50,951 nt of DNA, taken from contig JBBUGM010000027.1 of assembly GCA_038077975.1 (NCBI GenBank), positions 1 through 50,951 on the forward strand, in the 5' to 3' direction. The stretch comes from Patescibacteria group bacterium (GTDB taxonomy: Bacteria; Patescibacteriota; Minisyncoccia; UBA6257; 2-01-FULL-56-20). Below the pieces are notes generated by a model. The model saw only the letters and a list, made by a program, of their open reading frames with translations. It was not told the origin of the DNA and ran no database searches. This document shows, in pieces, positions 20,223-44,839 of the stretch (the stretch's first letter is position 1; each line of letters opens with the position of its first letter). Made by a program: the position numbers and the translations under genes.

Positions 20223-20232
20223 CTATGTTGAG

Positions 20233-21300: not shown

Positions 21301-21310
21301 GATTATATCA

Positions 21311-28535: not shown

Positions 28536-28564
28536 CTTATAAAATTATAATAGCACAATTCCAG

Positions 28565-28685: not shown

Positions 28686-29573
28686 ATGAGTCGCCTTGGC
28701 CAACATTTTTTAAAAGATAAAGTCGCGCTCAAAAAAATTGTTGATGCGCTGGATTTGCGCTCCGGTGACATCGTTATTGAGATTGGAGCGGGACACGGAG
28801 AGCTCACTAGAAAAATTATCAATTTTCAATTATCAATTTTCAAAAACGATGCGCAAAAAATTAAAATTATTGCAATCGAAAAAGACAATGGTCTCGCAAA
28901 AGAATTTGCGAGAAATTTTCAATGTCCAATTTCCAAGTTTCAAGAAAATGCTGATAAATTACTAAATGAAAATTTCGTGCTCTTTAATGATGATGTTTTG
29001 AAAATTCTAGCGCCCTTGATCGAATTTCTAAATTTGAAAATTGAAAATTGTAAATTGAAAATTTGCGGGAATATTCCCTACTACATCACCGGAAAACTTT
29101 TGCGTATTTTGAGCGAGCTGGAAAATAAGCCGGAGGTTTCCGTTTTCACAATCCAAAAAGAGGTTGCCGAAAGAATGTGCGCCTTGCCGCCGCGTAATAA
29201 CCGCTTGGCCGCAATAACACAGTTCTGGACAGAGCCAAAAATCCTCGAATATCTCGCGCCCGGGGCGTTTAATCCGCCGCCGGAGGTGGAGTCCGCCATC
29301 ATTAGATTAAAAATCAAAGATCAAAATGCAAAATTGATCGACGCGTGGAAATACTACGAAACCGTAAGAATTTTGTTCCAACAGCCGCGCCAAACAATTT
29401 TGAACAACCTCGCGCGGGCGACTAAACAAAAAAGGGCCATCGGCACAAATCAGCCCAATCGGCATAAATCAGCGATTATAGAAAAGCTTTCCGCAATAGA
29501 GATCGATCCCGAAAGCCGGCCACAAAATTTGAGCGTTGGAGAAATAATTCAAATCAGCTCCTTAAACCTTTGA
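28686..29573 (+). CDS. rsmA: 16S rRNA dimethyladenosine transferase with repeat-derived insertions
   Basis: LGQHFL, IEIGAGHGELT, AIEKD, GNIPYYIT, QKEVAERM, FNPPPEVESA, RPQNLS. Confidence 0.95.
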   Translation: MSRLGQHFLKDKVALKKIVDALDLRSGDIVIEIGAGHGELTRKIINFQLSIFKNDAQKIKIIAIEKDNGLAKEFARNFQCPISKFQENADKLLNENFVLFNDDVLKILAPLIEFLNLKIENCKLKICGNIPYYITGKLLRILSELENKPEVSVFTIQKEVAERMCALPPRNNRLAAITQFWTEPKILEYLAPGAFNPPPEVESAIIRLKIKDQNAKLIDAWKYYETVRILFQQPRQTILNNLARATKQKRAIGTNQPNRHKSAIIEKLSAIEIDPESRPQNLSVGEIIQISSLNL

Positions 29574-29764
29574 TCGGTCAATCCGGCATCGCGAATAATT
29601 CCGCGAAGGGTGTAGGGGTTAAGACGAGTATGTCGCGGTATAGTCACCCTGCGTCGTCCATCCGTCATGCCAATGTGTTTTTTCCCGCGACCTTCTGAAA
29701 TCCAGAAGCCGACTTTTTTTAAAGCCCTGACCAACCGATCGGATGAAATATCCGTAAAAAGCAT
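29549..29764 (-). CDS. hicA: HicA-family toxin
   Basis: LVRALKKVGF...GKKH...VTIPRH...TLRGIIRDAGL; TGATG coupling to hicB. Confidence 0.88.
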   Translation of the reverse strand: MLFTDISSDRLVRALKKVGFWISEGRGKKHIGMTDGRRRVTIPRHTRLNPYTLRGIIRDAGLTDQRFKELI

Positions 29765-29970
29765 CAGCCAGCGGCGATTTCCAACTCTCGAACCTTAACA
29801 TTGGTTCCTTCGGTCTCTGCCAAATCCATCCCAATATATGTCTTAATCGCGTCCCCGATGTTCTCTAGTGCCTCTTTTTCGGTTTTCCCTTGGCTGTGAC
29901 ACCCGGGAAAAGCGGGGACGTGGACATCGTAGCCATATTTGCTTTTCCGCAAAATAACAGTGTATTTCAT
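29764..29970 (-). CDS. hicB: Short HicB-family antitoxin
   Basis: VPAFPGCHSQGKTEKEALENIGDAIKTY; no C-terminal DNA-binding domain. Confidence 0.9.
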   Translation of the reverse strand: MKYTVILRKSKYGYDVHVPAFPGCHSQGKTEKEALENIGDAIKTYIGMDLAETEGTNVKVRELEIAAG

Positions 29971-30094: not shown

Positions 30095-30228
30095 TTTCCG
30101 GCGATTGGTTTACGGTTTCGACGCCCGTATGGGATATCGGTTTACGGCGTATGGTTTCGAAGCCCGAATAACTTTCAACGTATAACGTATAACGATACGC
30201 GCTTCGTAAACGCACAACGTATAACGAT
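30095..30228. repeat. Long imperfect hairpin element, copy 1
   Basis: 30143-30187 matches 48105-48149 at 42 of 45 nt; tandem tataacg units. Confidence 0.8.
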
Positions 30229-30234
30229 GCTCAA

Positions 30235-32412
30235 ATGGTTGATATAAAAAAACTTATAACAGGATTTTTGATCTTGGCCGCAGTCGCGAGTTCTTCGGCC
30301 TTATTCCTGTCGAGCATAATTCCGTCCAAAAACGTTGCGCTTCAAAGCGAACCCCTAATCGAGGAATCATCCAATAACTCGCTCCCCCCTCTTTTGTCGC
30401 AAAATGCTTTCGTCGAGTCCCTGCCCGCATCCAAACCAGCTACTACACCCACACCATCTGCCTATGCTTCCAGCGACGGCCTGCCCCCGGTAATTCCAAC
30501 CGACAACCTCACGGAAAATCTCGCCCAACAGCTTACGCGTGGCATTTTCGCATCAAATCCCAACGGGCCGGGCGAAGTGGGCGGCGAAGCGGCATTTCTT
30601 TTACCGTCGGGAGAAGAGCTCGACTCCATGCTCGGGCAAAGCCTTGCGGCAAACAACCAGATCGGCGCATTGCCGGATTTTAACAATCCAATCTCGGATG
30701 TAAATCTAAAAATAATATCAAACGCAAGCCAGAAAGACGCCGAAAAATATTTTGAGGCGGTGGACAAGGCCCTTGGGCTGACTCTCTTCAACCAGAACTT
30801 TGACAGTTTGTTGGCGCAGGAGCCAAGTTTGAACGCGGCGGCAAGCGCTCGGCTTGTCTACGATGAAGCTGTTATAAAACTAGAAAATGCTTCTGTCCCC
30901 AAAGAACTCGTCTCGTTTCATAAATCGCTTCTCGCCCTCGTTTCCAATCAGAAAAAATTTACCGAAATTCTGACGAGCCATCTCGACGATCCGGCAAGAG
31001 CAATAGCTTTGGCAAGGACCGCGCAGGGAAAAATTGACGATGTAGCCGCTCGCGATGTTGAAAACTACCGAAAGGAATTTGAAAAACTGGGGACTATTTC
31101 TTTCTCCGGCAAAAACTCTTTGTCAATCTTCCAAGATTCATTCGGCATAAAAACGGCACATGCTTTTATCTTTGTTCCTATTAATCGTGCCTTAACGACT
31201 GATCCCATAGCAATCGCCGAAAAAGTTTCCACTTGGGGCAACTGGATACATAATCTTTATACATGGGTCCAGGACTATTTATTGGGCATACTCCAAAATC
31301 AACTGATTTCGTTAATCCAGAGACAGCTGATCAATTGGATACAAGGTGGCGGAAACCCCAAATTTATCACGGACTGGAAGAGCTTTTTGGGAGATATTTT
31401 CAATCAGGCGGCGGGGGCGGCGATAGACGAGCTTACTGATGGAGCATTGTGCAGTGCTTTCGGGCCGTTTATACGACTTAACCTTCGCAATACCTTTTCC
31501 GGCGGCGGCAGTTTGAATATAACGAGTTGCACGTTGGATCGAATAGTCGGCAATCTAAGGGGATTTTTCCAAGATTTCAGTTCTGGTGGATGGTTGGCAT
31601 ATGGGGCAATGTTGCAACCGGAAAACGATTTTTACGGCAAATATGCCATTGCATCTGAGTTCGCGCTTAGAAAAGCTGAAGACGCTAAAGAAGCCGCGAA
31701 AAACACCGGCCTTGCCGGTTCGGGCTTCTTGGGCACACAATCCTGCAGCGATGGTTCCGAAGCGCACCAGGGTAGATGCGCAGACGGTTCTACTCCTCAA
31801 ACGCGAACACCGGGAGAAACGGTAGCGAGCGCGCTTTCCGATTCGCTCAGCTTGCCGGGTCAGCGCATAGTCAATTCCAAACGCTTGGAGAACCTTATTG
31901 CCGCACTGGTGGACGCGGCGATAAACCGCATAATACAAAGCGGCCTTGCGGGCCTCTCGGGATTTTCTTTCAGCGGCTCCGGCCCGTCTCCCGGCGCATT
32001 GCCAACTATTCCCACCGAGCAACAGGGAACCCAACCGTCGGGCTCAACGCCTGCAACGGGTAATGCCGGCGGATGGACTGGCGGAGGGTCGAGCGGTGGC
32101 GGCGCGGTCTGCGGCAACGGCTCGTGTGAAACCGGCGAAACAATAATAAGTTGTCCCGCCGATTGCGGTGGCGGCGAAGGGGGCGGTGGAGGATTGGCCT
32201 GCACGCCGTCGACACAAAACGTTGCTGCGGGAAGCCCGGCAGCGCTTACGGCACAAAACGGAACTGGTAATTACTCCTGGGGTGCACCGGGCGGCTCACC
32301 ATCGAACGGCACTGGCCCATCTTTCTCCGTTACATATCTCTTCACTGGGCTAAAAACCGTCCTTCTTGGAGACGGCGTAAGCAGTGTCAGCTGCCAGGTT
32401 ACCGTCCAATAA
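30235..32412 (+). CDS. Large membrane-anchored surface protein, first gene of the T4SS-like cluster
   Basis: N-terminal TM, helical module, internal GIKTAHA, Gly-rich linker, CGNGSCETGETIISCPADC repeat, terminal Ig/PKD-like domain. Confidence 0.85.
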   Translation: MVDIKKLITGFLILAAVASSSALFLSSIIPSKNVALQSEPLIEESSNNSLPPLLSQNAFVESLPASKPATTPTPSAYASSDGLPPVIPTDNLTENLAQQLTRGIFASNPNGPGEVGGEAAFLLPSGEELDSMLGQSLAANNQIGALPDFNNPISDVNLKIISNASQKDAEKYFEAVDKALGLTLFNQNFDSLLAQEPSLNAAASARLVYDEAVIKLENASVPKELVSFHKSLLALVSNQKKFTEILTSHLDDPARAIALARTAQGKIDDVAARDVENYRKEFEKLGTISFSGKNSLSIFQDSFGIKTAHAFIFVPINRALTTDPIAIAEKVSTWGNWIHNLYTWVQDYLLGILQNQLISLIQRQLINWIQGGGNPKFITDWKSFLGDIFNQAAGAAIDELTDGALCSAFGPFIRLNLRNTFSGGGSLNITSCTLDRIVGNLRGFFQDFSSGGWLAYGAMLQPENDFYGKYAIASEFALRKAEDAKEAAKNTGLAGSGFLGTQSCSDGSEAHQGRCADGSTPQTRTPGETVASALSDSLSLPGQRIVNSKRLENLIAALVDAAINRIIQSGLAGLSGFSFSGSGPSPGALPTIPTEQQGTQPSGSTPATGNAGGWTGGGSSGGGAVCGNGSCETGETIISCPADCGGGEGGGGGLACTPSTQNVAAGSPAALTAQNGTGNYSWGAPGGSPSNGTGPSFSVTYLFTGLKTVLLGDGVSSVSCQVTVQ

Positions 32413-32424
32413 AAATTTCTTGAA

Positions 32425-34806
32425 ATGTCCATTCTGAAAATAAATAAAAAATATTGGCTGGCGTTTATTCTTCTGGCGGTCGTTTTTATGGTCGCGACTC
32501 CACTAAATTTAGCGCGCGCGCAAGAACTTCCGAGCGCCCGTTCATGCGCCGGTAATCTTGTTGGTTGCGGAGTATATGTCACCGCATTGCTTGCAAATAA
32601 AATCAGTGGGTTGCTGGTATCCGGCGGGGCCTATCTTTTTGAGATTTCCCTGGAATTTAGCGCGGGGGCCGCTCGTATGCCGGTCGTTGAAAATGGTTTC
32701 AGCACGGCTCTTGCAATAGCCAATCTTGGATTTGTTCTTGGCATTATAGTAATCGCTATTGCAACAATTCTTCGCAATCAGACGTATGGCATCAAACAGC
32801 TTCTTTGGAAACTGGTAGTCGCGGCAATACTTGTTAACTTCTCTTTAGTAATAGGAAGAACTATTGTGGAGTCCGCGGATAATTTAACGAAGTCGTTTTT
32901 ACCGAACAGAAGCGTGCTGGCGGCGAGATTAGCCGATGCCCTCAAACCGCAGGCCGCCAATATTCCCCCGGTGCTTGCTTCTGCGGGCTCGAGCGGAGCA
33001 TGGTCGGCAAGTGTATGCGCCGATCAAGCAAGCAAGCTTGGAACCGACGCATTAAGAAAAGCGGCCGCTGCCACGTGTTCATTTATGGCCACAATACTAG
33101 ATCCGGTTTCAACTATACAAAATTTTACCTGGTTCTGGGGGCTTGGTCTGGGGGATTTATTCAGGGCGGCGCTAAATATGGTGATGGTGGTCTTTGTCAA
33201 TATGGTAATTGCATTTACTTTGTTGGCCGCCGCCATAATGTTAATTATCAGATTCTTTTACATAGGCATTTTGCTTATATTAATGCCGTTCGCGTGGCTG
33301 ATGTGGATTTTCCCGAACTTCAAATATCTGTGGACAAAGTGGTGGGGCTTGTTTTTAAGGTGGACGATGTTCGCGCCTGTCGTCGTAATTTTCTTGTTCC
33401 TTGCTTCTGAAACAGCTCAAATCGAATTTATCGACAATATAATCGGTGGCGCTGGAAACTTAAACAGTAGCGCTGCCATAGCTTTGTCTGCCGGAACCGG
33501 CAATCCCGCGCTCACCTTCTCTGTTGCGTCGCAAATAATGGTTGCCGCCTTTGCCCTCGGCGGGCTTTTCGCGGCTAACTCTCTAGGCATCCACGGAGCG
33601 TCATTCGCAATGGGCATCGCGAAAAGCGCGGGCACGATGGCGGCGGGGTATGTGGGGAAGCAAACCAAAAAGGGCGGCAGGGCTATACTGCGTAGCACGG
33701 GCATTGCGGAGAGAATGAGAACCAGTCCGTTGAGGCCGGTAGCTATTGCGGGCAGAGCGTTAGCTGGCATCAGTACGAACGAGGCGATGGTCGCGGAAGC
33801 CGCAAAAAAAGTGCTGGACAGAAAAGAGGATGTAATGGCAGGCCTTAGGGGCTCAATGAACACCGAAACACGGATGGCATATCTGCAAAAAGCTCAGAAG
33901 GAGGGCTGGATCAAACCGGATACGGAGGTGGGCGGTATGAGTGTGGGCGAATTTCTGAATCGGAATAGGGAAAAATTCAAGGGTTACGGGCAAAGCGGGG
34001 AAGGAAGTTTGGAAGAAAAATTAAGGGAGGACACGAAGTTGGCAGAACAAGATTGGACAAATGAAGAAAAAACAATCAATGCAAGAAACGGGGAACTAAA
34101 CAAAAAACGCAGTCTTTCCGACGAGGATGCCGCAAAGCAGGCCGGTTTGGGCGACGACGATAGGAATTTCTATTTGGCCGCAGAAAAAGAGAGCGAATAT
34201 GAATTTGCCTTGCGATCCGAAAAAGACAAAGAGAGGTTCTCTCAACTCCGCAGCAAGGCGCAGGAAGCCAGAGAAAAAGGCGGCCTCTCGCCCGAAGAAC
34301 AAAGAGAATTTGAAGAAAACCAGAGAAAACTTGGCGACATCGAAAGGAAGCGCAGTAAATACGTTTCAAAAAATCCGGATGCCGCCGCGGCAACTTTCCA
34401 AGACCACGAAGCGGCGCGCGCCAAACTTGCAGCCGAAGGCAAGCCGATTCCGGCAACGCTGGAGAAGGAATCGATAGAACGTATGCAAGAGGCAATGTTA
34501 AGCGCGATGGCTAAGGGTTTTTCTCCTCACACTGCCCGCGCCCTACTTGATGCCATTGGGAAAGCTAACAACCTTAAGCACTTTGAGGCCGCCGTAATGC
34601 GCCTAAAAGAAGGTAAAACGCCGGAGGATAAAAAGAAATTCGACCAAATACAGATGGCTCTCAACGCTAACACAGAACTCAAGCGCTGGATGCAAAACAG
34701 CGCGGGCCGGGCGCTTTTCGGCAACATTCATGAATTGTTCGGGCTTAAGAAGCTTAAGAATAAGAAGCGGAAGATAGAGGACGAAGAAGATGAAGAAGAA
34801 GCATAA
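32425..34806 (+). CDS. VirB6/TrbL-like polytopic membrane protein with a charged coiled-coil tail
   Basis: Signal peptide (LARA-Q), multiple TMs (IILLILMPFAW-like, WWGLFLRW), long K/E-rich C-terminus; context upstream of prgI and virB4. Confidence 0.72.
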   Translation: MSILKINKKYWLAFILLAVVFMVATPLNLARAQELPSARSCAGNLVGCGVYVTALLANKISGLLVSGGAYLFEISLEFSAGAARMPVVENGFSTALAIANLGFVLGIIVIAIATILRNQTYGIKQLLWKLVVAAILVNFSLVIGRTIVESADNLTKSFLPNRSVLAARLADALKPQAANIPPVLASAGSSGAWSASVCADQASKLGTDALRKAAAATCSFMATILDPVSTIQNFTWFWGLGLGDLFRAALNMVMVVFVNMVIAFTLLAAAIMLIIRFFYIGILLILMPFAWLMWIFPNFKYLWTKWWGLFLRWTMFAPVVVIFLFLASETAQIEFIDNIIGGAGNLNSSAAIALSAGTGNPALTFSVASQIMVAAFALGGLFAANSLGIHGASFAMGIAKSAGTMAAGYVGKQTKKGGRAILRSTGIAERMRTSPLRPVAIAGRALAGISTNEAMVAEAAKKVLDRKEDVMAGLRGSMNTETRMAYLQKAQKEGWIKPDTEVGGMSVGEFLNRNREKFKGYGQSGEGSLEEKLREDTKLAEQDWTNEEKTINARNGELNKKRSLSDEDAAKQAGLGDDDRNFYLAAEKESEYEFALRSEKDKERFSQLRSKAQEAREKGGLSPEEQREFEENQRKLGDIERKRSKYVSKNPDAAAATFQDHEAARAKLAAEGKPIPATLEKESIERMQEAMLSAMAKGFSPHTARALLDAIGKANNLKHFEAAVMRLKEGKTPEDKKKFDQIQMALNANTELKRWMQNSAGRALFGNIHELFGLKKLKNKKRKIEDEEDEEEA

Positions 34807-34819
34807 ATTCTAGCTAAAC

Positions 34820-36358
34820 ATGACTAATATCACCACGCAACAAGCAAGGGCGCGCTTCACAACAATTCCGCAAATCTTGCAGAACGAGGTTTTTTCCGTA
34901 CAAAACGCGGAAGTTATCGAGCAAATCTCGAAGCAAAATAATTTACCCGACGAGAAAATAGGAGAAGTTGCGGAAGTTGTTGGTTTCGCTCTTTTGGGGT
35001 TCATCCATCCCGAAGATGTGGCGAAAGAAGTAGAAGAACGGGCCGAAATTCCGCCCGCGCTTGCAACCGCGATATCCGAAGCGATAAATAAAAAAATATT
35101 CGCTTCTTTAAGAAACCAGTTAGATGAAATCTATGCTCCGGCTCCCCACGATCACGAACTCGAAGAAAAACCGCCGGTCTTTGTGGAAGAAATTAGGCCG
35201 CCGGTGGCGACTGCTCCTTCCGCTCCGAAAATGCCGACGGCGGTGCAACCCGTTGATATCAACAAAATTTTTGGCCCTTCGGCTGGCTCAGGGCAGGCGA
35301 TGACGCGACCCATTCCGCCGCCAGCGGTAAAACCTTTCGGCGCAATACAGGTTAAACCGCCGATGCCGCCTGCGCCGTCAACCGCAACAGGAATGAAAGT
35401 AGAGCCGCCCAAGCCGCCAGTATCGCAAATCTCTCCGATAAAGCCCGCCTCATCGACGCCTACATCAAAACCGCCCGGCAAGGAGGGATTGAGCGAATTT
35501 GAACGCCTCGGACTCGCCAAAAAATTAGGAGAGGCAACAGAACCAACGGTGCTTTACAAAGCACCAGAGGCAAAACTCGGCGAAAAAGTATCGAGTTTCA
35601 AGATCGAAACGCCGATCCCGAAATTCGACAAAGGAAAGCCCTTCGACTCCGCTCGGGGTATAACCGCTCCCCTAAGGCCGGCAGTACTCGAATTCGGGAC
35701 GGGCAAGCCGCCAGCCGCCCCTCCTTCGCCCAAAGCCGCGGAGGGCAAGGCGAGAATTGTGAACTATTCGGATCTAAAAACGACTCTTCCCCCGGTGGCA
35801 CCAAAACCGGCTCCAGAAAGAGAAATTAGGGAATTCACCGCGAAAGAAGCCGGACTCCCGACTTCACCCTCCAAAATTTCTGAAAGAAATTTAGGAGGGC
35901 AGGCGTCGGGAATGACAGAGAGGCCAGCGGCCGTGGCGCCATCGCCAATTAAACCCTTCGACTTCGCTTCCGCCGACGCCAGGGCTTTGGCGGACAGGCA
36001 GGGAATAAAAGCTCCAGAAAAACCAGCGGCTACACCCATGTCCAGACCACTCTTGGGGGACGAGAAAGCGATGCACCCCTCCCTTGAACCGTTGATGAAA
36101 AAAAGCGAGCCGCCCTCGCCTCCGGCTACGGCGAGCCAAAGACCGCCGGCTCCGCCGCCTTCCCCTTCGACAAGCTCAGGGAATAACGGAAGTTTATCGC
36201 CTGAGCGAGCTTCACGAGTCGAAGGCCGCCCTGCGACAAGCCCGGGAAATAACTCGACAAGCTCGGAGAATAACACCCCGCTGGCTTCTCCTCGCCCAAG
36301 AATCGAGCCACCACCCGTTCGTCGGCCAGAAAATCCATCCGACGAACGCAAGCTCTAA
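34820..36358 (+). CDS. Protein with a folded N-terminal helical domain and a Pro-rich disordered tail built partly from REP-like repeats
   Basis: Ordered first ~105 aa, then P/S/A-rich; repeat copies detailed in findings. Confidence 0.8.
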   Translation: MTNITTQQARARFTTIPQILQNEVFSVQNAEVIEQISKQNNLPDEKIGEVAEVVGFALLGFIHPEDVAKEVEERAEIPPALATAISEAINKKIFASLRNQLDEIYAPAPHDHELEEKPPVFVEEIRPPVATAPSAPKMPTAVQPVDINKIFGPSAGSGQAMTRPIPPPAVKPFGAIQVKPPMPPAPSTATGMKVEPPKPPVSQISPIKPASSTPTSKPPGKEGLSEFERLGLAKKLGEATEPTVLYKAPEAKLGEKVSSFKIETPIPKFDKGKPFDSARGITAPLRPAVLEFGTGKPPAAPPSPKAAEGKARIVNYSDLKTTLPPVAPKPAPEREIREFTAKEAGLPTSPSKISERNLGGQASGMTERPAAVAPSPIKPFDFASADARALADRQGIKAPEKPAATPMSRPLLGDEKAMHPSLEPLMKKSEPPSPPATASQRPPAPPPSPSTSSGNNGSLSPERASRVEGRPATSPGNNSTSSENNTPLASPRPRIEPPPVRRPENPSDERKL

Positions 36359-36485
36359 ATCCTAAGCCCTAAATCCTAAACAAAATCAAAATTCTAATGT
36401 TCCAAAACGCTAAAAACTTTTGGAATTTAGGATTTGTGGTTTGGGGCTTGTTTAGAATTTAGAATTTAAATATTAGAATTTAAAC
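36355..36485. repeat. 7-nt periodic palindromic element (CTAAAT/ATTTAG family)
   Basis: ctaaatc-ctaagcc-ctaaatc-ctaaaca left arm; ttagaat-ttagaat right arm. Confidence 0.8.
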
Positions 36486-36487
36486 TG

Positions 36488-36979
36488 ATGCAATTCCAAG
36501 TTCCCCAATTCATCGAAACGGAAGACAAGATAGTCGGGCCTTTTTCCATAAGGCAATTCATTTATATAGGCGCGGCCGGCATTGTGAGCTTCTTCCTTTA
36601 TTTCACGGTCGAGCTCTGGCTTTGGGTTTTGGGCACCGTTTTTTCGCTGGCGCTCGCAATGGGATTCGCCTTCATCAAGATAGAAGGGCGCGATTTAACG
36701 CATGTTCTCGCCGCGGCTTTGAACTTTTACTGGAAGCCACAAACCTACGTCTGGCAGCCGGAACATCCGGAAGTGCCGAAAAGCGAGGCGCTCGAAAAGG
36801 AAGCGGGAATTTCACTTGAAGACGTCCTTTCCGGTGCCGCGCTTCGAAACGCCTGGCGTGGGCTACAGACCGGCACGAAAGTTTCGCCTAGACAGGTCCT
36901 CGAGAAAGGAGAGAAATATCAGATCTTTCAAAAATTGAGCGGAGAACGCCGCGCCGCAAGGCGCATAGATTACAGATAA
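36488..36979 (+). CDS. prgI: PrgI-family (VirB3-like) membrane protein
   Basis: MQFQVPQFIETEDKIVGPFSIRQF followed by two TMs. Confidence 0.85.
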   Translation: MQFQVPQFIETEDKIVGPFSIRQFIYIGAAGIVSFFLYFTVELWLWVLGTVFSLALAMGFAFIKIEGRDLTHVLAAALNFYWKPQTYVWQPEHPEVPKSEALEKEAGISLEDVLSGAALRNAWRGLQTGTKVSPRQVLEKGEKYQIFQKLSGERRAARRIDYR

Positions 36980-37068
36980 TGCAAAAATCAAAATGCAAAA
37001 ACTGATTTCGAATGATAGAATTAATTAAACTTCATTTTGAATTTTGATTTTTTAATTTTGATCTAATT
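36978..37068. repeat. 7-nt periodic palindromic element (CAAAAT/TTTTGA family)
   Basis: atcaaaatgcaaaa is shared with 43143-43156 and with rsmA 29320-29333. Confidence 0.78.
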
Positions 37069-37070
37069 TT

Positions 37071-37742
37071 ATGCCCAAAGATCTCGGCAACACACAAGAC
37101 CTCGTGGCCATCGAGGAAATAAAAGAGGACACGGTGGTCCTCAAAGGCGGCGCCCTGCGGCAAATCATTATGGTGAGCGGCGTTAACTTCGCCTTGAAAT
37201 CGGAGGTAGAACAAAACGTGATAACGCAGTCGTATCAGAATTTTTTAAACGGACTCGATTTCAACATCCAGATCGTCATCCATTCGAGAAAAGTGAATGT
37301 GGAAAAATATCTTGGGATCATCACGCGCTTCGAAGAGATGGCAACGGTGCCCCTCATCAAAAACCAGGCGAGCGAATACAAAGAATTCATCCGCAGTTTC
37401 GTTTCCAAGAACGCGATCATGGAGAAAACGTTTCTTGTGCTCGTGCCTTTCGCCTCTGTTGCCTTGCCGAGCGCGGAATCCGTAACTTCCGGCATTTCTC
37501 TGCCGTTCTTCAAAAAGAAGGACGCGAAAGAAACGGAGGCGAAAGCGAAAGAGGCATCCGAAGAGCGCTTCAAGGAGGATCTGGCGCAACTTCGCCAGCG
37601 CACAACGCAAGTTGTGGACGGCCTTTACTCTGTCGGCCTTGAATCGGTGGTTCTGAACACTGAACAATTGATCCAGCTTTTCTATAATTTTTACAATCCG
37701 GAAACGATCGAAAGGGAGAATATGGAAATACCAAATCAATAA
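37071..37742 (+). CDS. T4SS-associated protein resembling the VirB4/TraE N-terminal region
   Basis: IIMVSGVNFALKSEVEQ...YQNFLNGLDFNIQIVIHSRK; lies between prgI and virB4. Confidence 0.72.
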   Translation: MPKDLGNTQDLVAIEEIKEDTVVLKGGALRQIIMVSGVNFALKSEVEQNVITQSYQNFLNGLDFNIQIVIHSRKVNVEKYLGIITRFEEMATVPLIKNQASEYKEFIRSFVSKNAIMEKTFLVLVPFASVALPSAESVTSGISLPFFKKKDAKETEAKAKEASEERFKEDLAQLRQRTTQVVDGLYSVGLESVVLNTEQLIQLFYNFYNPETIERENMEIPNQ

Positions 37743-37744
37743 AG

Positions 37745-37830
37745 TATCGATGCTAATCTGCGAATGAATACTAATTATACTAATGAATTTTTATTCGTAT
37801 CATTAGCATAATTCGTATATTCGTATCGAT
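37745..37830. repeat. Palindromic element, CGAAT/ATTCG family
   Basis: 16-nt identity with 17833-17848. Confidence 0.72.
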
Positions 37831-37839
37831 ACAATATCT

Positions 37840-39555
37840 ATGCCTGAAAATAATTTCAAAAACATCGCGAAGATAATAGCGCCCTCCGGCGTGCAGGTGC
37901 AGTCGAACAAGGCGAAGATCGGCAACAAAATCGCCAAGGCGTTCTTCGTTTTTTCTTATCCGCGCTATCTCGCGACCGGATGGTTCGAGCCCCTGATCAA
38001 CCTCCCCTACCTTTTCGATGCCTCCGTCTTCATAGACCCGATAGACACGGGCACGGCTTTGAAAAACCTACGAAAAAAGGCGGCGCAGATCGAGTCGCAG
38101 ATCAACGACCAGCAGGAAAAAGGGCTCGTGCGCGACCCCCTGCTCGAAACCGCCCTCCAGGACGTGGAGACCCTGCGCGATACACTCCAAACCTCGCAGG
38201 AAAAGCTCTTTGATGTCGGCCTTTATGTGACGATCTATGCCGACACCGACGACGAACTTGCGAAAGTCGAGTCGAAGCTTATCTCTCTTCTCGAAGCAAA
38301 GCTTGTCTACTTGAAGCCGGCGCTTTTCGAACAGCTTGAGGGCATTTTCTCGACCCTCCCCTTGGTTGACGACAAGTTGAAGATACACACGCCGATGAAC
38401 TCGGGGCCGGTTTCGTCTTTCTTCCCGTTCGTCTCCGAAGATCTTTCTTCCAACGAAGGAATTCTCTACGGCGTGAACCTCCACAACCAAAGTTTGGTCA
38501 TCTTCGACAGATTCTCGCTTGAAAACGCGAACCAGGTAGTTTTCGCGAAATCCGGCGCCGGAAAATCGTACGCCACGAAACTCGAGATCATCAGAGCCCT
38601 GATGACTGATGTCGAAAACATTATCATCATCGACCCCGAGAACGAATACAAAAAACTGGCGGAGACGTTCGGCGGCAGCTGGTTCAATATCTCGCTCTCT
38701 TCGAAAGAGCATATCAACCCATTCGACATACCCATGGTTCCCGAAGATGAATCTCCCGCAGACGTTTTGCGCTCTCACATCGTGAACCTTACGAGCTTAC
38801 TCAAGCTCATGCTCGGAAAGATCGCCCCGGAAGAAGAGGCGCTCCTCGACCGCGCCGTCACGGAAACCTACGCTTCGCGTGAGATCTCACCGAACAGGGA
38901 TTTCTCGGGCATCGAGCCGCCACTCCTCGAAGACCTCGAAACGGTTCTCCGCAATCTTGAGGGCGGCCGTTCGATGGCGGAGAGATTATACAAATACACA
39001 AAGGGTAGTTTTTCCGGCTTCATCAACCAGCCGACGAACGTGGACATGTCTAACCGGCTTATCGTTTTTTCCATCCGCGATCTTGAGGAAGAGCTACGGC
39101 CGATCGCTATGTTCGTCATTTTGAACTTTATTTGGAACCTTATACGCGCAAAACTTTCAAAGCGCCTACTTTTGATTGACGAGGCGTGGATCATGATGAA
39201 GAACGAAGACGCCGCCACTTTCCTTTTCGGAATGGTGAAACGCGCGAGAAAATATTATTTGGGCGTGACGACGATTACGCAGGACGTGGAGGACTTCTTG
39301 CGTTCGCCTTACGGCAGGCCGATCATCACAAACTCTTCTCTCCAGCTTTTATTAAAACAGGCGCCGGCAACGATCGAGCTTGTGGCGAAAGCTTTTAATT
39401 TAACTGAAACGGAAAAGAATTTCCTTCTGGGCTCCGAGGTCGGAACCGGACTTTTCTTCGCCGGCCGCAGGCACGTGGCGATCCAGATCGTCGCGTCTTA
39501 TTTCGAGGATCAGATAATCACGACAAACCCGGCGGAACTTTTGGAAGGAAAGTAG
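37840..39555 (+). CDS. virB4: VirB4-like T4SS ATPase
   Basis: ILYGVN, FDRFSLENAN, Walker A FAKSGAGKS, IIDPENEY, INPFD, Walker B LLIDEAW, RARKY, TITQDVEDF. Confidence 0.93.
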   Translation: MPENNFKNIAKIIAPSGVQVQSNKAKIGNKIAKAFFVFSYPRYLATGWFEPLINLPYLFDASVFIDPIDTGTALKNLRKKAAQIESQINDQQEKGLVRDPLLETALQDVETLRDTLQTSQEKLFDVGLYVTIYADTDDELAKVESKLISLLEAKLVYLKPALFEQLEGIFSTLPLVDDKLKIHTPMNSGPVSSFFPFVSEDLSSNEGILYGVNLHNQSLVIFDRFSLENANQVVFAKSGAGKSYATKLEIIRALMTDVENIIIIDPENEYKKLAETFGGSWFNISLSSKEHINPFDIPMVPEDESPADVLRSHIVNLTSLLKLMLGKIAPEEEALLDRAVTETYASREISPNRDFSGIEPPLLEDLETVLRNLEGGRSMAERLYKYTKGSFSGFINQPTNVDMSNRLIVFSIRDLEEELRPIAMFVILNFIWNLIRAKLSKRLLLIDEAWIMMKNEDAATFLFGMVKRARKYYLGVTTITQDVEDFLRSPYGRPIITNSSLQLLLKQAPATIELVAKAFNLTETEKNFLLGSEVGTGLFFAGRRHVAIQIVASYFEDQIITTNPAELLEGK

Positions 39556-39604
39556 CCCGCCAATGGACGCTAATATTACCGCTAATTTACGCTAAAAATT
39601 AAAG

Positions 39605-40333
39605 ATGAACGAGGCCGAAGGAGAGAAAAAAATAGATCTGGTATTAGGAATCATTCTGATGCTTCTCGCCCTGCTTTCAGACGGGACGGACGCGTTAGCC
39701 GCCGCCGCTTTCGCGATCCCTGTTTTAGGCCAAATCACATACCTTTTAAACGCCTTTCTTATATCGCCCGTCGTTTGGGCGATCATACAATTTTCATTTA
39801 TAATGAAAATGGGGTTTGCGGGAAGAGTTGGCTTGATGAATTTGACCGGCGGAATTTTGAATGTGATAGGCATCCCCGGAAGTGAAACTTTAGCAACTTC
39901 CATCGCAATTTGGTTCGCCAACCATCCGAAGGCAGCGGCTGTAGCGCAGGTCGCAACTGGAAAAGTTGGAGCGGCGGGTGGCAAAGCGGCGGCGGCAGAA
40001 AAAGCAGGCGCCGTTGCGGGAGGCGGCGCGGTCGCGGAAAAAACAGCCGCCGGAGCCGCGGGAGCGGCAAGGGCCGAACGCGGAGCCGAAGCGGCGGTAG
40101 AGGCCGAACGCGGAGTGGCCGGCGCAGAACGCGCGGCGGTTTCGGAGGGCAGAGCAGCCGAAGGCGCGCCGAGAGAACCGGGCAAGGGTGTCTCGGAAGA
40201 AGCAATGGGCGTCAAACCGGAAGAAGCGGAAAATCTGCCGAGAAAACTTTTGGAGGAGTTCCCCGAAGCCAAAAGAGAAGAAGAAGCCGAAAGCGAGGGC
40301 GAAGGAGAGGAGGAGTTGCCGAAGGCAGTATAG
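39605..40333 (+). CDS. Membrane protein with an Ala/Gly-rich then Glu-rich tail
   Basis: Hydrophobic N-terminal half followed by low-complexity AAGGKAAAAEK...EEE. Confidence 0.78.
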   Translation: MNEAEGEKKIDLVLGIILMLLALLSDGTDALAAAAFAIPVLGQITYLLNAFLISPVVWAIIQFSFIMKMGFAGRVGLMNLTGGILNVIGIPGSETLATSIAIWFANHPKAAAVAQVATGKVGAAGGKAAAAEKAGAVAGGGAVAEKTAAGAAGAARAERGAEAAVEAERGVAGAERAAVSEGRAAEGAPREPGKGVSEEAMGVKPEEAENLPRKLLEEFPEAKREEEAESEGEGEEELPKAV

Positions 40334-40339
40334 ACACAA

Positions 40340-40480
40340 AAAACCAAAATTGTAAATCACAAATTACAAGCACCAAATTACAAACAAATTCCAATAACCA
40401 AAATAAAAATTCCAAACCTTTCGAATTTCGGATTTATAATTTTGATATTGTTTGTGATTTGAAATTTGTAATTTACCTAT
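40340..40480. repeat. 7-nt periodic palindromic element (CAAATT/AATTTG family)
   Basis: 32-nt taaatcacaaattacaagcaccaaattacaaa is identical at 40353-40384 and 41208-41239. Confidence 0.85.
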
Positions 40481-40503
40481 GGGGTAGTTGAAAAAATTTA
40501 AAA

Positions 40504-41199
40504 ATGGCAACACAAAATTTAGCAATTAAGTTTATTGTAGTTGCGGCGCTTGTCGCCCTGTTTTTTGCCGCGCAGTTCTTGAGCGCGCAGGCACAAGCGC
40601 AGCCATATCTTTGGATAACATGGCACGCGGAAAGCTACGCGCCGCCCGGCTTCGGAGGGAAAATCTTGCCGACGGCCGGCTCGCCCATCACCGCGTCTTT
40701 TGAAGTGATCGGCGGCGGCAAACCGGCTAACGTTTCCGCGCAAACCGTTTATTGGTATTTGAATAATGAGCTTATTTCGAACAAGGCGGGTACAAAAACC
40801 GTGAAATTCAACGCACCCTCAAGAACTTCCGCGCTTTTGGATCTGCGCATCGAGCTTCCCACATATCCTGGGGGACTTCTTCTTCGAACGGCGCGGATTC
40901 CTGTCGTCTCACCGGAAGCCGTAATTGAAGCGCCTTATCCGGATAAAGCGTTTTCCGGCGCGCAAATAAAAGCAACGGGAAGGCCTTACTTTTTCAACAT
41001 ACAAAACATTTCAGAGCTTAACTTTTCATGGAGCGTTGACGGACAAACTCCGGGTTCTCTCGAGCGCCCGCAGGAACTTATCGTTAATCTCGACCCTAGC
41101 TCGCCGATGGGAACCGCCGTGAACCTCGCCCTCACTATCCTCAACGCGAAAAACCAAGCGGAGTCGGGCTCCGGATTCCTAATATTGAGAAAACAATAG
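40504..41199 (+). CDS. Secreted protein with two Ig/PKD-like beta domains
   Basis: Signal peptide ending AQA; VYWYLNN and FSWSVDG motifs. Confidence 0.78.
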   Translation: MATQNLAIKFIVVAALVALFFAAQFLSAQAQAQPYLWITWHAESYAPPGFGGKILPTAGSPITASFEVIGGGKPANVSAQTVYWYLNNELISNKAGTKTVKFNAPSRTSALLDLRIELPTYPGGLLLRTARIPVVSPEAVIEAPYPDKAFSGAQIKATGRPYFFNIQNISELNFSWSVDGQTPGSLERPQELIVNLDPSSPMGTAVNLALTILNAKNQAESGSGFLILRKQ

Positions 41200-41204
41200 C
41201 AGTC

Positions 41205-41432
41205 GGTTAAATCACAAATTACAAGCACCAAATTACAAATTAATATTAAAAGTCAAAAACATCTGTCATTCTCGGACTCGATCCGAGAATTCAGGATCGT
41301 CCAAGAAACTAGATTCCCGCTTTCGCGGGAATGACAGGGAATATCATTTTGGTCATTGAAATTTGTTTGTGATTTGTAATTTCGAATTTGTGATTTTAGC
41401 CGCTTGGGATTTGATTAGGTCAATTAGAAATT
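41205..41432. repeat. Composite: heptamer palindrome with a nested REP (41264-41336), then a 29-nt dispersed repeat
   Basis: tgtcatt...gattcccgctttcgcgggaatgaca between heptamer arms; ttgggatttgattaggtcaattagaaatt is identical at 41404-41432 and 44477-44505. Confidence 0.8.
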
Positions 41433-41433
41433 T

Positions 41434-41799
41434 ATGAGTAATAATATTATCATTTATCTGCCCCTGTTTCTTTTTCTGCTTTTGTTTCTGCCTTCTGCAA
41501 GCGTGCACGCGGTTGATTTTTCGCTTCCGGGCGGAATACACACAGAAGCCGAGGGCACACCGGGGATCATTGATGATATTTACAGATTTTCACTGTTCTC
41601 CGCCGGAATCCTTGCGTTCGGCGCGATCGTCTACGGAGGAATCAAATACACTTTTGCGGCGGGGAATCCTTCGGGGCAAAGCGAGGGAAAAGAATGGGTG
41701 AAGGGCGCGCTTTTGGGCCTCCTGCTCCTTGCTGGAGCGTATCTCATACTCCGAACCATCAACCCGCAATTAGTACAATTAAGATTACCGACACTATAA
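41434..41799 (+). CDS. TrbC/VirB2-like T4SS pilin
   Basis: Signal peptide (SVHA-V); AFGAIVYGGIKYTFAAGNP...GKEWVKGALLGLLLLAGAYLILRTINP. Confidence 0.85.
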   Translation: MSNNIIIYLPLFLFLLLFLPSASVHAVDFSLPGGIHTEAEGTPGIIDDIYRFSLFSAGILAFGAIVYGGIKYTFAAGNPSGQSEGKEWVKGALLGLLLLAGAYLILRTINPQLVQLRLPTL

Positions 41800-41925
41800 T
41801 TTAATCTCTAAACTCAAAACCCTAATCTCTAAACAATTTCAAATGTCGAAATCCGAAACGGTTAGTTTTTGAAATTTGAGTTTTGGATTTGTTTAGAAAT
41901 TAGAAATTAGGATTTAGAAATTTGT
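41800..41925. repeat. 7-nt periodic palindromic element
   Basis: tttgagttttggatttgtttaga is identical at 41875-41897 and 44421-44443. Confidence 0.8.
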
Positions 41926-41931
41926 TTTACC

Positions 41932-43128
41932 ATGAAGCGCCTATCTTATCTCATAATCATTCTCGCGGTCGTGGCTTTGGTCGTTCTCATCGGCTATTTC
42001 TTGCGCTACAGAGCCGGCGAGCCGGCCACCTCCGGCGAGCCATCTCCGGGAGGACTTCCGGCGATCCCGACCGAGCCGATTTCCCAGCCCGGCGGGGAGG
42101 AGGGGGGCGGAGCCGTTACGCCACCGGCAGAAGTCGTCCAGCCGGGTGAGCAGAAGTTCGGGGTGATAGCGCAGAACCAGGTGTTCGACTTTTTTGTCGA
42201 CGCACAAAATAATACCGTTCTTATCCAGCCCGACGGGCAGGTTGTAAAAGTAGTAAAAGGAGAAGCGTCTGTCTTAAGTTCGTCAGTAATCAACAACTTA
42301 CGGCGGGCGGAGTTCTCTTATGACGGCAAATTCATCCTTGCTTCATTCGGCGGCGCAAGTGGACAAGAACACAGCATCTTTAATATCGATGCAAAATCCT
42401 GGAGCCCGCTTTCAGGGGGGATCTCGTCGCCAACATGGTCGCCGATGAACTACCAAATCACATATTTCCGCGAAAATGCCGGCGTAAAAACGCTTGAAAC
42501 GCTTAATACCGCCGATCCAAAAGCCAAACCGCAGGAGCTCACGCGTTTGAACGCCGAAGACCTGTTGCTCTCTTGGATAAGCCCGAACCAAATGATAATT
42601 GGCGAAAGGGGAAGCGCGCTTGTCGCGGGATCGCTTTGGAGCTTCGATACGCAGAAGAAAACCATGTCGTTATTCATGGATGGCGTACTTGGCCTTAATT
42701 CCGCATGGAGCGGTGAGGCATCAACTGGCCTTGTCTTTAGAACCGATGTCTCTCGCCGCGGAGGCACGCTTTCCTTATATGACGTGGCCGGCAATGCGCT
42801 TGCGAACCTTTCGTTCCTTTCCCTCCCTTCAAAATGCGCGTTTGACGCAGTCCCTGCGAATGGAACCGGAACGGCCGCCTCAAAATTCCTTTACTGCGCG
42901 ATCCCGGCAAATGCTGAAAGTTTCGGGAATTCCATGCTGCCGGATGATTACGAAAAACGCGCGCTCTTTGCTCGCGATGGATTCTTTAGGGTGGACCTTG
43001 CGGAGGGTGGCATTAAAGAACTTCTCACGGGACAGCTTGTTGACGGAAATCGGCTGAAGATCTTCGGAAAGAATCTGTTCTTCATAAACCGGCTTGATGG
43101 AAGATTGTACGCGCTGGCGCTAGAATAA
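41932..43128 (+). CDS. Membrane-anchored beta-propeller-like protein
   Basis: N-terminal TM, Pro/Gly linker, TolB-like FSYDG, WSP and WISP blade motifs. Confidence 0.72.
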   Translation: MKRLSYLIIILAVVALVVLIGYFLRYRAGEPATSGEPSPGGLPAIPTEPISQPGGEEGGGAVTPPAEVVQPGEQKFGVIAQNQVFDFFVDAQNNTVLIQPDGQVVKVVKGEASVLSSSVINNLRRAEFSYDGKFILASFGGASGQEHSIFNIDAKSWSPLSGGISSPTWSPMNYQITYFRENAGVKTLETLNTADPKAKPQELTRLNAEDLLLSWISPNQMIIGERGSALVAGSLWSFDTQKKTMSLFMDGVLGLNSAWSGEASTGLVFRTDVSRRGGTLSLYDVAGNALANLSFLSLPSKCAFDAVPANGTGTAASKFLYCAIPANAESFGNSMLPDDYEKRALFARDGFFRVDLAEGGIKELLTGQLVDGNRLKIFGKNLFFINRLDGRLYALALE

Positions 43129-43222
43129 TGCAAAATGCAAAAATCAAAATGCAAAATGACAATGTAAAAATTTTTAGATTAAAGATTTGTGTTTTTGATC
43201 TTTGATTTTTAAATTTTGATTT
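43128..43222. repeat. 7-nt periodic palindromic element between convergent genes
   Basis: tgcaaaa-tgcaaaa-atcaaaa-tgcaaaa left arm; ttttgat units on the right. Confidence 0.78.
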
Positions 43223-43643
43223 AAAGTGGTTTTATGACCACGCTTCTTTCTTTTCCGATACCGAAACTTTCGGTTTTTACTTCCGGATGCACCGCAAGCG
43301 TTACGTGCACGATTCGCCTTTCATAGGAATTCATCGCCGGTAAAGAAACGCTTTCTTTGGTTGAAACCGCTTTTTTGGCGGCGGCTTTCGCAAGTTCGGC
43401 TATCAAATTTTCTCTCTCTTGCCGGTAATTATTGATGTCGAAAAAAACCGACGATTCATTGTTCTTCTTCGCCACCATGTGGGCGAGATGATTAATGCTC
43501 TCCACCAGTATCGGCAAATTATCCTTGACGAGATTGGGGCTGTCATAAATAAATATCTGCCCCCGCTTTTCTTCCGGCTTCAATTCCACGCGAAAATCGC
43601 CGAATCCCATAAACTCAATTATTTTTTTGATCAAATTTTCCAT
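43221..43643 (-). CDS. jag: Jag/KhpB-like KH-R3H RNA-binding protein lacking the Jag-N domain
   Basis: FFDINNYRQERE, LPAMNSYERRIVH, ESFGIGKERSVVI. Confidence 0.85.
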   Translation of the reverse strand: MENLIKKIIEFMGFGDFRVELKPEEKRGQIFIYDSPNLVKDNLPILVESINHLAHMVAKKNNESSVFFDINNYRQERENLIAELAKAAAKKAVSTKESVSLPAMNSYERRIVHVTLAVHPEVKTESFGIGKERSVVIKPL

Positions 43644-44340
43644 CGTTCTTTAATTGCCTATTAATGATGATCTGCTGGAACACTGAAAAAAGGGAGGTCG
43701 CCGCCCAGTAAAGCGCGACAGCGGCCGGGAAATTGAAAAAGATGACGACCGTGATGATCGGGCCCACAAAAACCATGTTGTGAGCCATCTTTTCCTGCGT
43801 CGTCTGCGGCTTTTCACCTTTTTTCCACAGGGCCAGTTTTCCTTGAAAATACTGGGCTAAAGCGGCCAAACTCACAATAAGAATACTTGATTCGCCGAGG
43901 TTTATCAAACCAAAAAGGGTGTTGTGGATAACTTCCGGCCGCGCCACAAAAGGATATAAGCTGTCCAAAAATTCGGGTTTGAGCGTGTTCAAGAAAATCC
44001 TGTAAAGCGCGATCAATATCGGGAGCTGCACCAGGAGTATAAAAAATCCGGAAAAGGGATTGACGTTGTGTTCGCGATAAAGATGGAGCATCGCCTCCGC
44101 CTGTTTTTCTTTGTTAGCTTTATGCTCGTCTTGGATCTTTTTTACTTTCGGCTGAAGGCGCTGCATCACCATTTGATGCTTCGCGCCTTTGTGGAAGAGC
44201 GGATAAAGTATCAGCCGGACGATTATTGTAAGAATAATGATTGCGAGTCCAAGGTCTTCGAAGGCAACTGTGTTGTAAAGAAAAACCAACAAATTCAAAA
44301 GCGGCCTGTTAAGAATTTCGTTGTAGAGGAAAGAGAACAT
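43615..44340 (-). CDS. yidC: Membrane protein insertase YidC (short, monoderm type)
   Basis: GLAIIILTIIVRLILYPL, LQPKVKKIQ, NPFSG, LVQLPILIALY, AVALYWAAT. Confidence 0.93.
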   Translation of the reverse strand: MFSFLYNEILNRPLLNLLVFLYNTVAFEDLGLAIIILTIIVRLILYPLFHKGAKHQMVMQRLQPKVKKIQDEHKANKEKQAEAMLHLYREHNVNPFSGFFILLVQLPILIALYRIFLNTLKPEFLDSLYPFVARPEVIHNTLFGLINLGESSILIVSLAALAQYFQGKLALWKKGEKPQTTQEKMAHNMVFVGPIITVVIFFNFPAAVALYWAATSLFSVFQQIIINRQLKNDGKFDQKNN

Positions 44341-44344
44341 AGTA

Positions 44345-44512
44345 AGGGCAAAAAATTTCTAAATCCTAATTTCTAATCTCTAAATAATCTCAAACATCAA
44401 AGTTCAAAGGGGTTTTGGGGTTTGAGTTTTGGATTTGTTTAGAGATTAAGGTTTAGAGATGAGAGATTTCAAACTGTTGGGATTTGATTAGGTCAATTAG
44501 AAATTAGATTAA
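44345..44512. repeat. Heptamer palindromic elements between rnpA and yidC
   Basis: ttctaaa-tcctaat-ttctaat-ctctaaa left arm; identities with 41875-41897 and 41404-41432. Confidence 0.78.
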
Positions 44513-44839
44513 TTAGAAATTTTGCTTGATTTTTTCTCCAAACGTCCGAAGCGCTTCCTTAACTTCTTCCGCGGTTGCTTCGTTAATTTTTTTGAAAACT
44601 ATGACCAGAATGTCTTTTTGATTCTCTGCGGATTTTTTAATTTCATCGGCGATGATCCTTCTCCAAAAATTCCTCCTTGCGGCGTTTTTCACTGCCGCGG
44701 AAGAAATGATGATCCCGAATCTGGGGTGGACTACTTCGTTTTCGAAAACCTTTATCAAAAAGAATGGCAGCGAGATCGTTTGCTTCGGCTTTTTCCTTTT
44801 CGTTTCTTCTACGGCCAGACGAAATTTTTTGGAATACAT
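44513..44839 (-). CDS. rnpA: Ribonuclease P protein component
   Basis: RFGIIISSAAVKNAARRNFWRRII (RNR-like), DILVI; position after rpmH. Confidence 0.85.
   Translation of the reverse strand: MYSKKFRLAVEETKRKKPKQTISLPFFLIKVFENEVVHPRFGIIISSAAVKNAARRNFWRRIIADEIKKSAENQKDILVIVFKKINEATAEEVKEALRTFGEKIKQNF

Follow-up and report, generated by a model that had tools for sequence, protein, structure and literature searches.

The window described here is the whole of a 50,951-nt stretch of DNA from a Patescibacteria group bacterium (assembly GCA_038077975.1, contig JBBUGM010000027.1, referred to as C27). It contains a gene cluster for a monoderm-type type IV secretion system (T4SS) that appears to be a resident part of the chromosome beside dnaA. 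The assembly is 772 kb in 33 contigs, with 49% G+C and an estimated completeness of 88.6%. Homologues of the genes carry the labels Candidatus Liptonbacteria, Paceibacterota or Minisyncoccia. The cluster consists of ten open reading frames (ORFs), g1 to g10, which span positions 30235-43128. All ten are on the + strand and all ten frames are open, in agreement with the ten co-oriented genes of an original prediction that was made from the sequence alone. The junctions are tight between g1 and g2 (12 nt), g2 and g3 (13 nt), and g6 and g7 (49 nt), and the remaining gaps are 91-234 nt. The G+C of the cluster is 0.47-0.53, compared to 0.49 for the genome, and there is no compositional island. The genes were compared with those of 41 relatives, with 151 genomes of the class, and with 20 fetched neighbourhoods from the same order (family and order).

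The motor of the system is encoded by g5 and g6. The g6 product (37840-39555, +) was identified as the C-terminal motor domain of a VirB4 ATPase, the signature gene of a T4SS. It matches NF045971, the VirB4 CD1110 family (CD1110/CTn2), at 3.6e-116 and 389 bits, where the cut-off is 325, and PF19044 at 5.9e-27. Walker A (AKSGAGKS, residues 236-243) and Walker B (LLLIDE, residues 443-448) are both intact. The alignment of g6 to the VirB4 model begins at model position 188, and the missing N-terminal domain is encoded by g5 (37071-37742, +). This TrsD-like protein (NF041427, 1e-7) aligns with the N-termini of VirB4 models. In one relative, G029, TrsD and VirB4 are a single 796-aa ORF (L020:8744-11134), and they are separate genes here and in 19 other relatives. 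Because of the fusion in G029, g5 and g6 are read as a split VirB4. Two genes upstream of virB4 is g4 (36488-36979, +), which encodes a PrgI/VirB3-like small membrane protein (PF12666, E 8.9e-10, 39.4 bits, cut-off 27) and is present in 20 of 20 relatives. Judged by family model rather than by phylogeny, the cluster possesses a VirB4 of the FATA lineage with its catalytic motifs, and a VirB3-like PrgI/TrsC protein close to it. A separate observation concerns VirB4 in three other genomes of the class (G176:C3:1099-3969, G179:C6:47950-51594 and G153:C30), where the match is broken at query residues ~240-245, in the Walker A region. For G176 and G179, a single open frame (989 and 1,263 aa) contains both VirB4 pieces, with an in-frame insert of ~380-640 aa between them. 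The insert looks like a P-loop intein.

A VirB2-like T4SS pilin is encoded by g9 (41434-41799, +), which matches T4SS_pilin (PF18895) at 1.4e-6 and 28.7 bits with a cut-off of 26.6. Its transmembrane (TM) profile has a signal-like N-terminal segment that ends in VHA and is followed by two hydrophobic segments. Two tandem VirB2-like paralogues of g9 were found on contig C18, at 6395-6826 and at 6959-7720, the latter at the contig end. The second of these (phmmer E 1e-31 to g9) is extended at its C-terminus by a Gly/Pro/Cys-rich stretch and is cut off by the end of the contig. PrgI, a VirB4 N-terminal-like protein, VirB4 with its Walker motifs, and a VirB2-like pilin had all been named in the original prediction, and each was recovered as a match to the families given above.

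That prediction also included a VirB6-like protein, g2 (32425-34806, +, 793 aa), and this identification could be upheld in part. The g2 protein itself has no match in Pfam or NCBIfam, even at an E-value of 5. Its TM profile has a signal/anchor segment, about six TM segments, and then a charged helical C-terminal domain of ~400 aa. An AlphaFold model from a 128-sequence alignment has a mean predicted local distance difference test score (pLDDT) of 82.6, and the C-terminal domain is confidently helical. With Foldseek, the highest-probability PDB match of this model is the R388 TrwI/VirB6 stalk chain 7o3v_J (probability 0.99, target-normalised TM-score 0.51, E 0.56). A second match is 8rt9_F (probability 0.96), and the E-values of both are ~0.4-0.6. 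The g2 profile gave noise or coiled-coil matches only when it was compared to PDB sequences. Pfam TrbL/VirB6 was matched by seven of 60 g2 homologues, below the cut-off and at best at 3.3e-5, and TrbL_4 by two. No other Pfam family recurred among the 60. Overall, g2 can be described as a divergent, 'extended' VirB6-like polytopic membrane protein. With its own profile, the g2 family was found in 124 of the 151 class genomes. It shares the orientation of virB4 and is upstream of it, at a median of 2.9 kb, in 94 of 95 same-contig cases. Standard hidden Markov models are described as detecting VirB6 in a minority only of Patescibacteria (Quinonero-Coronel et al., 2025, Microb Genom 11:001409; PMC12102498).

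The cluster ends next to jag (43221-43643, -), yidC (43615-44340, -), rnpA (44513-44839, -), rpmH (44934-45068, -), dnaA (45464-46819, +) and dnaN (46944-48056, +), and a class A penicillin-binding protein (PBP) gene is present downstream of dnaN. These genes were identified through Pfam, with the exception of rpmH, which was found by translation, and the predicted run of jag-yidC-rnpA-rpmH-dnaA at the end of the cluster was therefore confirmed. The upstream flank contains uvrD/pcrA, an unannotated 408-aa ORF (27309-28535, -), ksgA/rsmA (28686-29573), and a hicA-hicB toxin-antitoxin pair (29549-29970, -; PF07927 4.7e-11, PF15919 3.1e-8) that is situated between ksgA and g1. The hicAB pair is outside the machine, is the sole mobile-type item beside the cluster, and has no tblastn match in any of the 20 relatives. 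Weaker HicB-like ORFs are present on contigs C14 and C11.

The same arrangement can be followed through the family and most of the order. The synteny check that had been proposed with the original prediction was made on the 20 neighbourhoods. In most of them the order is uvrD-ksgA-g1-g2-g3-PrgI-TrsD-VirB4-(g7)-g8-pilin-g10-jag-yidC-rnpA-dnaA-dnaN-PBP1, so that the ten-gene order is kept between ksgA and jag-yidC-rnpA-dnaA. VirB4 was found in 40 of the 41 relatives, at 45-80% identity, and in 146 of the 151 class genomes, at ~40-67% identity; most genomes have a single match. In 82 of 85 same-contig cases across the class, dnaA has the same orientation as virB4 and is no more than 15 kb downstream of it, at a median of 5.7 kb. 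Median identity to the relatives is 73.5% for VirB4, compared to 67.6% for DnaA. The g1, g2 and g10 proteins are fast-evolving, with medians of 30-34%. From the identity in 146 of 151 genomes, rather than from a tree against mating-pair formation (MPF) references, this VirB4 very likely falls inside the monophyletic Patescibacteria clade.

No relaxase, type IV coupling protein (T4CP), integrase or recombinase family was matched among the ~43 window ORFs that were scanned against Pfam, and the predicted lack of these genes in the window held. In the whole assembly, at its 88.6% completeness, four relaxase families were absent: PF03432, PF01076, PF02486 and PF03389 (Relaxase, Mob_Pre, Rep_trans and MobA_MobL; MOBC, MOBM, MOBH, MOBB and MOBF were not searched). 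The genome check for VirD4 had the opposite outcome. VirD4/TrwB-like ATPases are encoded on other contigs, at C4:29148-31139 and C8:14405-15532 (-), and none in the window. The C4 protein has 663 aa, with Walker A at residue 38, no N-terminal TM segment, and an Arg/Pro-rich tail of ~230 aa. A 427-aa membrane protein adjoins its gene (C4:29148-32426, -) and may supply the anchor for this ATPase. Nearly all relatives (40 of 41) have homologues of the C4 protein, in most cases two to four copies per genome. The assembly has one tyrosine recombinase, which is on contig C9, outside the window.

A 45-nt direct repeat is present upstream of g1 (30143-30187) and downstream of dnaN (48105-48149), with 42 of 45 positions identical (93%). 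Both copies are in repeat-rich gaps of a second flavour, with CGTATAACG-like words. This repeat, the only one found to flank the cluster, was considered as a pair of att sites and was rejected, since dnaA-dnaN, which belong to a block with conserved gene order in the relatives, are situated between its two copies. Taken together, the cluster has no relaxase of the families searched, no linked coupling protein, no bounding integrase or att site, and no patchy distribution of the kind seen with an integrative and conjugative element (ICE). It is thus strongly supported that the cluster is a chromosomally fixed, resident apparatus rather than an ICE, as had been predicted.

Five further genes of the cluster encode lineage-specific proteins. 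The g10 protein (41932-43128, +, 398 aa) is an N-terminally anchored, TolB-like beta-propeller. Its orthologue profile matches TolB chains in PDB at 7.5e-7 to 3e-6, there is a weak TIGR02800 match, and the gene was found in 16 of 20 relatives. The g8 protein (40504-41199, +, 231 aa) has an N-terminal hydrophobic segment and appears to be secreted or anchored. It was found by tblastn in 18 of 20 relatives. BiPBP_C, an Ig-like family, was weakly matched by five of 18 g8 orthologues (best 9.4e-5), and the g8 profile gave noise or coiled-coil matches only against PDB sequences. From the sequence pattern, g8 is probably composed of two tandem Ig-like beta-sandwich domains. The original prediction of Ig-like and beta-propeller surface proteins was therefore sound for the propeller, and the Ig-like part has weak matches only, in g8 and, as a sub-threshold PKD match, in g1.

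The g1 protein (30235-32412, +, 725 aa) is a membrane-anchored surface protein of two modules, as indicated by its TM profile, AlphaFold model and linkage. It has a single N-terminal TM segment, a helical N-terminal module at residues ~80-290, and a Cys-containing core at ~324-575 with the motif WIQGGGNPKFITDW. The C-terminus is poorly modelled and has the PKD match (3e-4). The AlphaFold pLDDT is 62.5 overall and 80-97 in the N-terminal module. Foldseek gave nothing credible for the model, with all probabilities below 0.25. Scattered Foldseek matches to ClyA-type helical toxins (probability 0.08 or less) were not taken as evidence. Profiles of g1 and of its core gave noise or coiled-coil matches only against PDB sequences. 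A Pfam scan of g1-core homologues found no recurrent family, and the members scanned had no Pfam match. The unannotated ORF at 27309-28535 was also examined as a paralogue of g1, and this was not supported by BLASTP (E 0.31). The g1 family is large, with 7,040 representatives at 50% identity matched by its profile, 3,578 of these at an E-value of 1e-30 or better. It was found in 86 of the 151 class genomes, and in 61 of 61 same-contig cases parsed it is co-oriented with virB4 and 3.6-11 kb upstream of it. In several other genomes the two modules match separate, adjacent stretches, and there are stand-alone core proteins with their own N-terminal hydrophobic segment. The junction …KTAHAFIFVP… of the present g1 aligns with the region of this segment, and the present g1 thus appears to result from the fusion of two genes.

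The g3 protein (34820-36358, +, 512 aa) has no TM segment. Its N-terminal domain of ~100 aa is conserved (13 of 20 relatives), and the tail after it is variable. Proline makes up 17% of the protein, and 9-20% across orthologues. No Pfam or NCBIfam match was found for g3, and a word-based homologue search with the N-terminal domain retrieved g3 alone. The g7 protein (39605-40333, +, 242 aa) is a small membrane protein, polytopic, with a tail rich in Ala, Glu and Gly. No family match was found for it in Pfam or NCBIfam. In most relatives the slot right after virB4 is occupied by a similar multi-TM protein, often with an (N/R)HP(K/E/R) motif.

The gaps between the genes have a common structure. 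Most of the gaps examined contain a long, imperfect, AT-rich hairpin of short repeated words, with arms of ~40-60 nt. The hairpin gaps inside the cluster are 36359-36487, 37743-37839, 40334-40503 and 41800-41931, and were recognised by repeat families shared between gaps and by RNA folds. Other gaps included in the repeat survey are 28557-28680, 41200-41433 and 43129-43220. In RNA folding, five of seven gaps had z-scores of -3.8 to -6.0 and the other two were indistinguishable from shuffles. For some gap sequences, 28-43 short matches were found in other parts of the genome. The gap between the core genes yidC and rnpA (44341-44512) has a hairpin of the same type as those within the cluster, so the predicted sharing of repeats with core genes was found. 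That the cluster gaps carry the genome's own hairpins was counted as support for residency. The gap hairpins have no Rfam match; in the window as a whole, the Rfam scan gave two tRNAs and nothing else. Heptamer-type repeats are also present within the ksgA/rsmA frame (28812-29064), where the arms 28813-28844 and 29033-29064 are 91% complementary, which suggests an in-frame repeat insertion. In simple scans, terminator-like sites were about as frequent as in shuffled sequence; promoter-like sites were more numerous than in shuffles but define no transcription units. ARAGORN identified a tRNA-Ile with anticodon TAT at 290-363 (-). In most bacteria AUA is read by a modified CAU tRNA, and a tRNA-Ile with a TAT anticodon would be unusual.

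The cluster had been placed beside the replication origin. The linkage to dnaA is clear, and the position of the origin itself is less so. Within the window, the cumulative GC skew has its turning point at ~20-21 kb and not at dnaA, and DnaA boxes are scattered rather than tightly clustered. One perfect box is present in the dnaA-dnaN gap (46876-46884) and another is at 43923. Since the skew turns away from dnaA and the boxes are scattered, the exact position of oriC is not fixed by the data. The skew minimum coincides with a dip in G+C (0.41) at 19000-21400, ~25 kb from dnaA, where gene orientations diverge. Within this region, 20223-20869 (~650 nt) is non-coding and 20870-21211 is a small ORF with a C-terminal CxxC…CxxC that is DksA/TraR-like by eye. 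Other genes were observed on the upstream side of the cluster. An M23 peptidase with two LysM domains (24073-25143, -) is 5 kb upstream. It is a possible candidate for a VirB1 stand-in; it is on the other strand and its tie to the T4SS is unproven. An ORF6N/Rha-type phage-regulator-like gene (16007-16531, -) is farther upstream.

Previous work (PMC12102498) has already described this kind of system, its lack of a relaxase, its dnaA/ksgA/rnpA/rpmH neighbourhood and the idea of a gene-dosage effect. According to that paper, the VirB4 of Patescibacteria is a monophyletic clade nested in MPF-FATA, with TrsD, PrgI, VirB6 and VirB2-like pilins near virB4, relaxases nearly absent, and T4CPs unlinked. 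In Paceibacteria the virB4 neighbourhood is given as dnaA, dnaN, rnpA, ksgA and rpmH, and a gene-dosage hypothesis is proposed for it. A host-contact or feeding role is stated there as well, and the organism is regarded as a monoderm. The present locus is an instance of this described system and does not differ from it in kind, with the same gene set, no relaxase, an unlinked T4CP and a chromosomal site on the side of dnaA. In the portion of PMC12102498 available, g1, g3, g7, g8 and g10 are not named as T4SS components. In Southlakia epibionticum (ML1), a homologous T4SS cluster and a pilin array are reported as essential for epibiotic growth (Wang et al., 2023, Cell, via PMC12857230). There the array has six pilin genes, whereas here there is one pilin in the cluster and two paralogues on another contig.

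Compared to the MPF-FATA systems (Clostridioides difficile CTn2/CD1110, pCF10 PrgH-PrgL and pGO1 TrsC/TrsD), the VirB4 is above the CD1110 cut-off, and homologues of PrgI and TrsD are common to both. Also in common, no counterpart of the diderm outer-membrane core (VirB7, VirB9, VirB10) was recognised among the ten products. Unlike these systems, the locus has no relaxase, adjacent T4CP, oriT or integrase, and appears fixed in the chromosome and vertically inherited. It also possesses a VirB2-like pilin, which Gram-positive systems are described as lacking (PMC12857230). No recognisable PrgB adhesin is present in the cluster. Compared to R388 Trw and Agrobacterium VirB (MPF-T), the g2 model resembles TrwI/VirB6 and g9 shares the VirB2 layout. 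In contrast to MPF-T, there was no match to the VirB5, VirB7-VirB10 or VirB11 families among the ten products in Pfam and NCBIfam.

The cluster is best explained, with a probability of roughly 0.85, as a chromosomally fixed, vertically inherited T4SS of a Paceibacteria-type Patescibacterium, derived from monoderm MPF-FATA conjugation machinery and no longer mobile. In such a machine VirB4 (g5 and g6), docked on PrgI, the VirB6-like g2 and g7, would power the building of a short pilus or conduit of the VirB2 type that crosses the monoderm wall. The anchored and predicted outward-facing g1, g8 and g10 could form a wall-spanning or host-binding part that docks or stabilises the conduit on the host cell. 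By analogy with the essentiality in S. epibionticum, macromolecules may be moved between epibiont and host. The unlinked VirD4-like ATPases could supply its substrates or could have no part in this. Published work favours a role in host interaction, and a host-contact or feeding function can be inferred from the report that the S. epibionticum counterpart is essential. A 2026 preprint (10.64898/2026.06.21.733656) describes tubular structures at a parasite-host interface and suggests them as possible T4SS pili. More tentatively, and with doubt, g1, g8, g10, g7 and g3 can be considered a Patescibacteria-specific extracellular and adaptor module that replaces the missing VirB8, VirB1 and adhesin parts. 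In that case g1, with a family of at least 7,040 clusters, might be the distal, host-touching component, such as a pilus-tip or host-envelope-engaging protein.

Several points weigh against this reading of a resident host-contact T4SS. The VirB6 identity of g2 leans on a Foldseek match with a high probability and a weak E-value (0.56) and on sub-threshold Pfam matches of its homologues, and can be said only to lean towards VirB6. No VirB8-like (PrgL/TraM) or VirB1-like (PrgK/TrsG) match was found in Pfam or NCBIfam among the ten products; such genes are reported as equally scarce across the phylum (PMC12102498). The g1, g3 and g7 proteins are without recognisable relatives, and their putative membership in the machine follows from conserved linkage only. 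The assembly is incomplete and the relaxase search took in four families; MOBC and MOBM, given as the commonest in Patescibacteria (PMC12102498), were outside it. A gene-dosage benefit is unproven, and ancestral synteny retained in a small, stable genome explains the linkage to dnaA equally well.

Other explanations of the cluster can be considered. It could be a DNA-uptake machine, like the archaeal Ced system, through which DNA of the host or the environment is taken in as a source of nucleotides or for recombination, rather than a conduit for host contact or effectors. Such DNA uptake has a parallel in the ComB T4SS of Helicobacter. The g6 protein has a partial match to the DNA-import ATPase CedB (NF041017, 3.4e-9), but this spans only ~70 residues of the P-loop region. 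The absence of the four relaxase families makes export of the bacterium's own DNA unlikely. A ComM-like gene (21311-22849) is near the cluster, as is UvrD/PcrA, and in the class ABY1 the T4SS is described as situated with comF, recG and radA (PMC12102498). However, no tie between the cluster and comEC or comF was seen in the window (the genome was not searched for comEC). When comEC was deleted in S. epibionticum, competence was lost and viability kept, whereas the T4SS is essential (PMC12857230). DNA import is the main rival reading, and an unlikely one.

It is far less probable still that the genes are part of an ICE, or of one recently immobilised, with its relaxase, coupling protein and integrase outside the window or too divergent to be recognised. 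VirB4 does belong to a Gram-positive ICE family (CD1110/CTn2), VirD4-like ATPases are present in the genome, hicAB abuts the cluster, the 45-nt direct repeat is present, and the assembly is incomplete. However, the gene order is shared with housekeeping flanks through the family and most of the order, and dnaA linkage is class-wide. The 45-nt repeat brackets dnaA-dnaN and hicAB is absent from 20 of 20 relatives. The VirD4-like genes are unlinked and nearly universal among the relatives, the only tyrosine recombinase is on C9, and neither the four relaxase families nor a compositional anomaly was found. The ICE reading is largely refuted by these results. That the cluster is what is left of an ancient conjugation system, in decay and now functionless, is the least credible reading of all. 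It could account for the fast evolution of accessory genes such as g1, g2 and g10 and for a VirB4 divided between two genes. The split is, however, the norm among the 20 relatives, with only G029 fused. In addition, the frames are open, both Walker motifs are undamaged, VirB4 is conserved to the same degree as DnaA, and a 772-kb genome keeps ~13 kb for the cluster, as does nearly every member of the class. This conservation refutes the remnant reading.

The preferred reading therefore continues to be a resident T4SS of the Paceibacteria type. The locus is a clean, complete example of this version and adds little as a discovery. The additions to published work are modest and consist of an order-level component list with coordinates and the class-wide linkage to virB4 of the g1 and VirB6-like g2 families. 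The component list, with the VirB6-like g2, g1, the propeller, the probable Ig-like protein and the Pro-rich protein, provides concrete targets for co-folding, cryo-electron tomography and genetics. If g1 is indeed the host-touching component, it would be the best handle on how epibionts tap their hosts. Few molecular leads exist on the way in which this very large group of ultrasmall bacteria, most of them uncultured, lives on other cells, and the T4SS of Patescibacteria is one of them.

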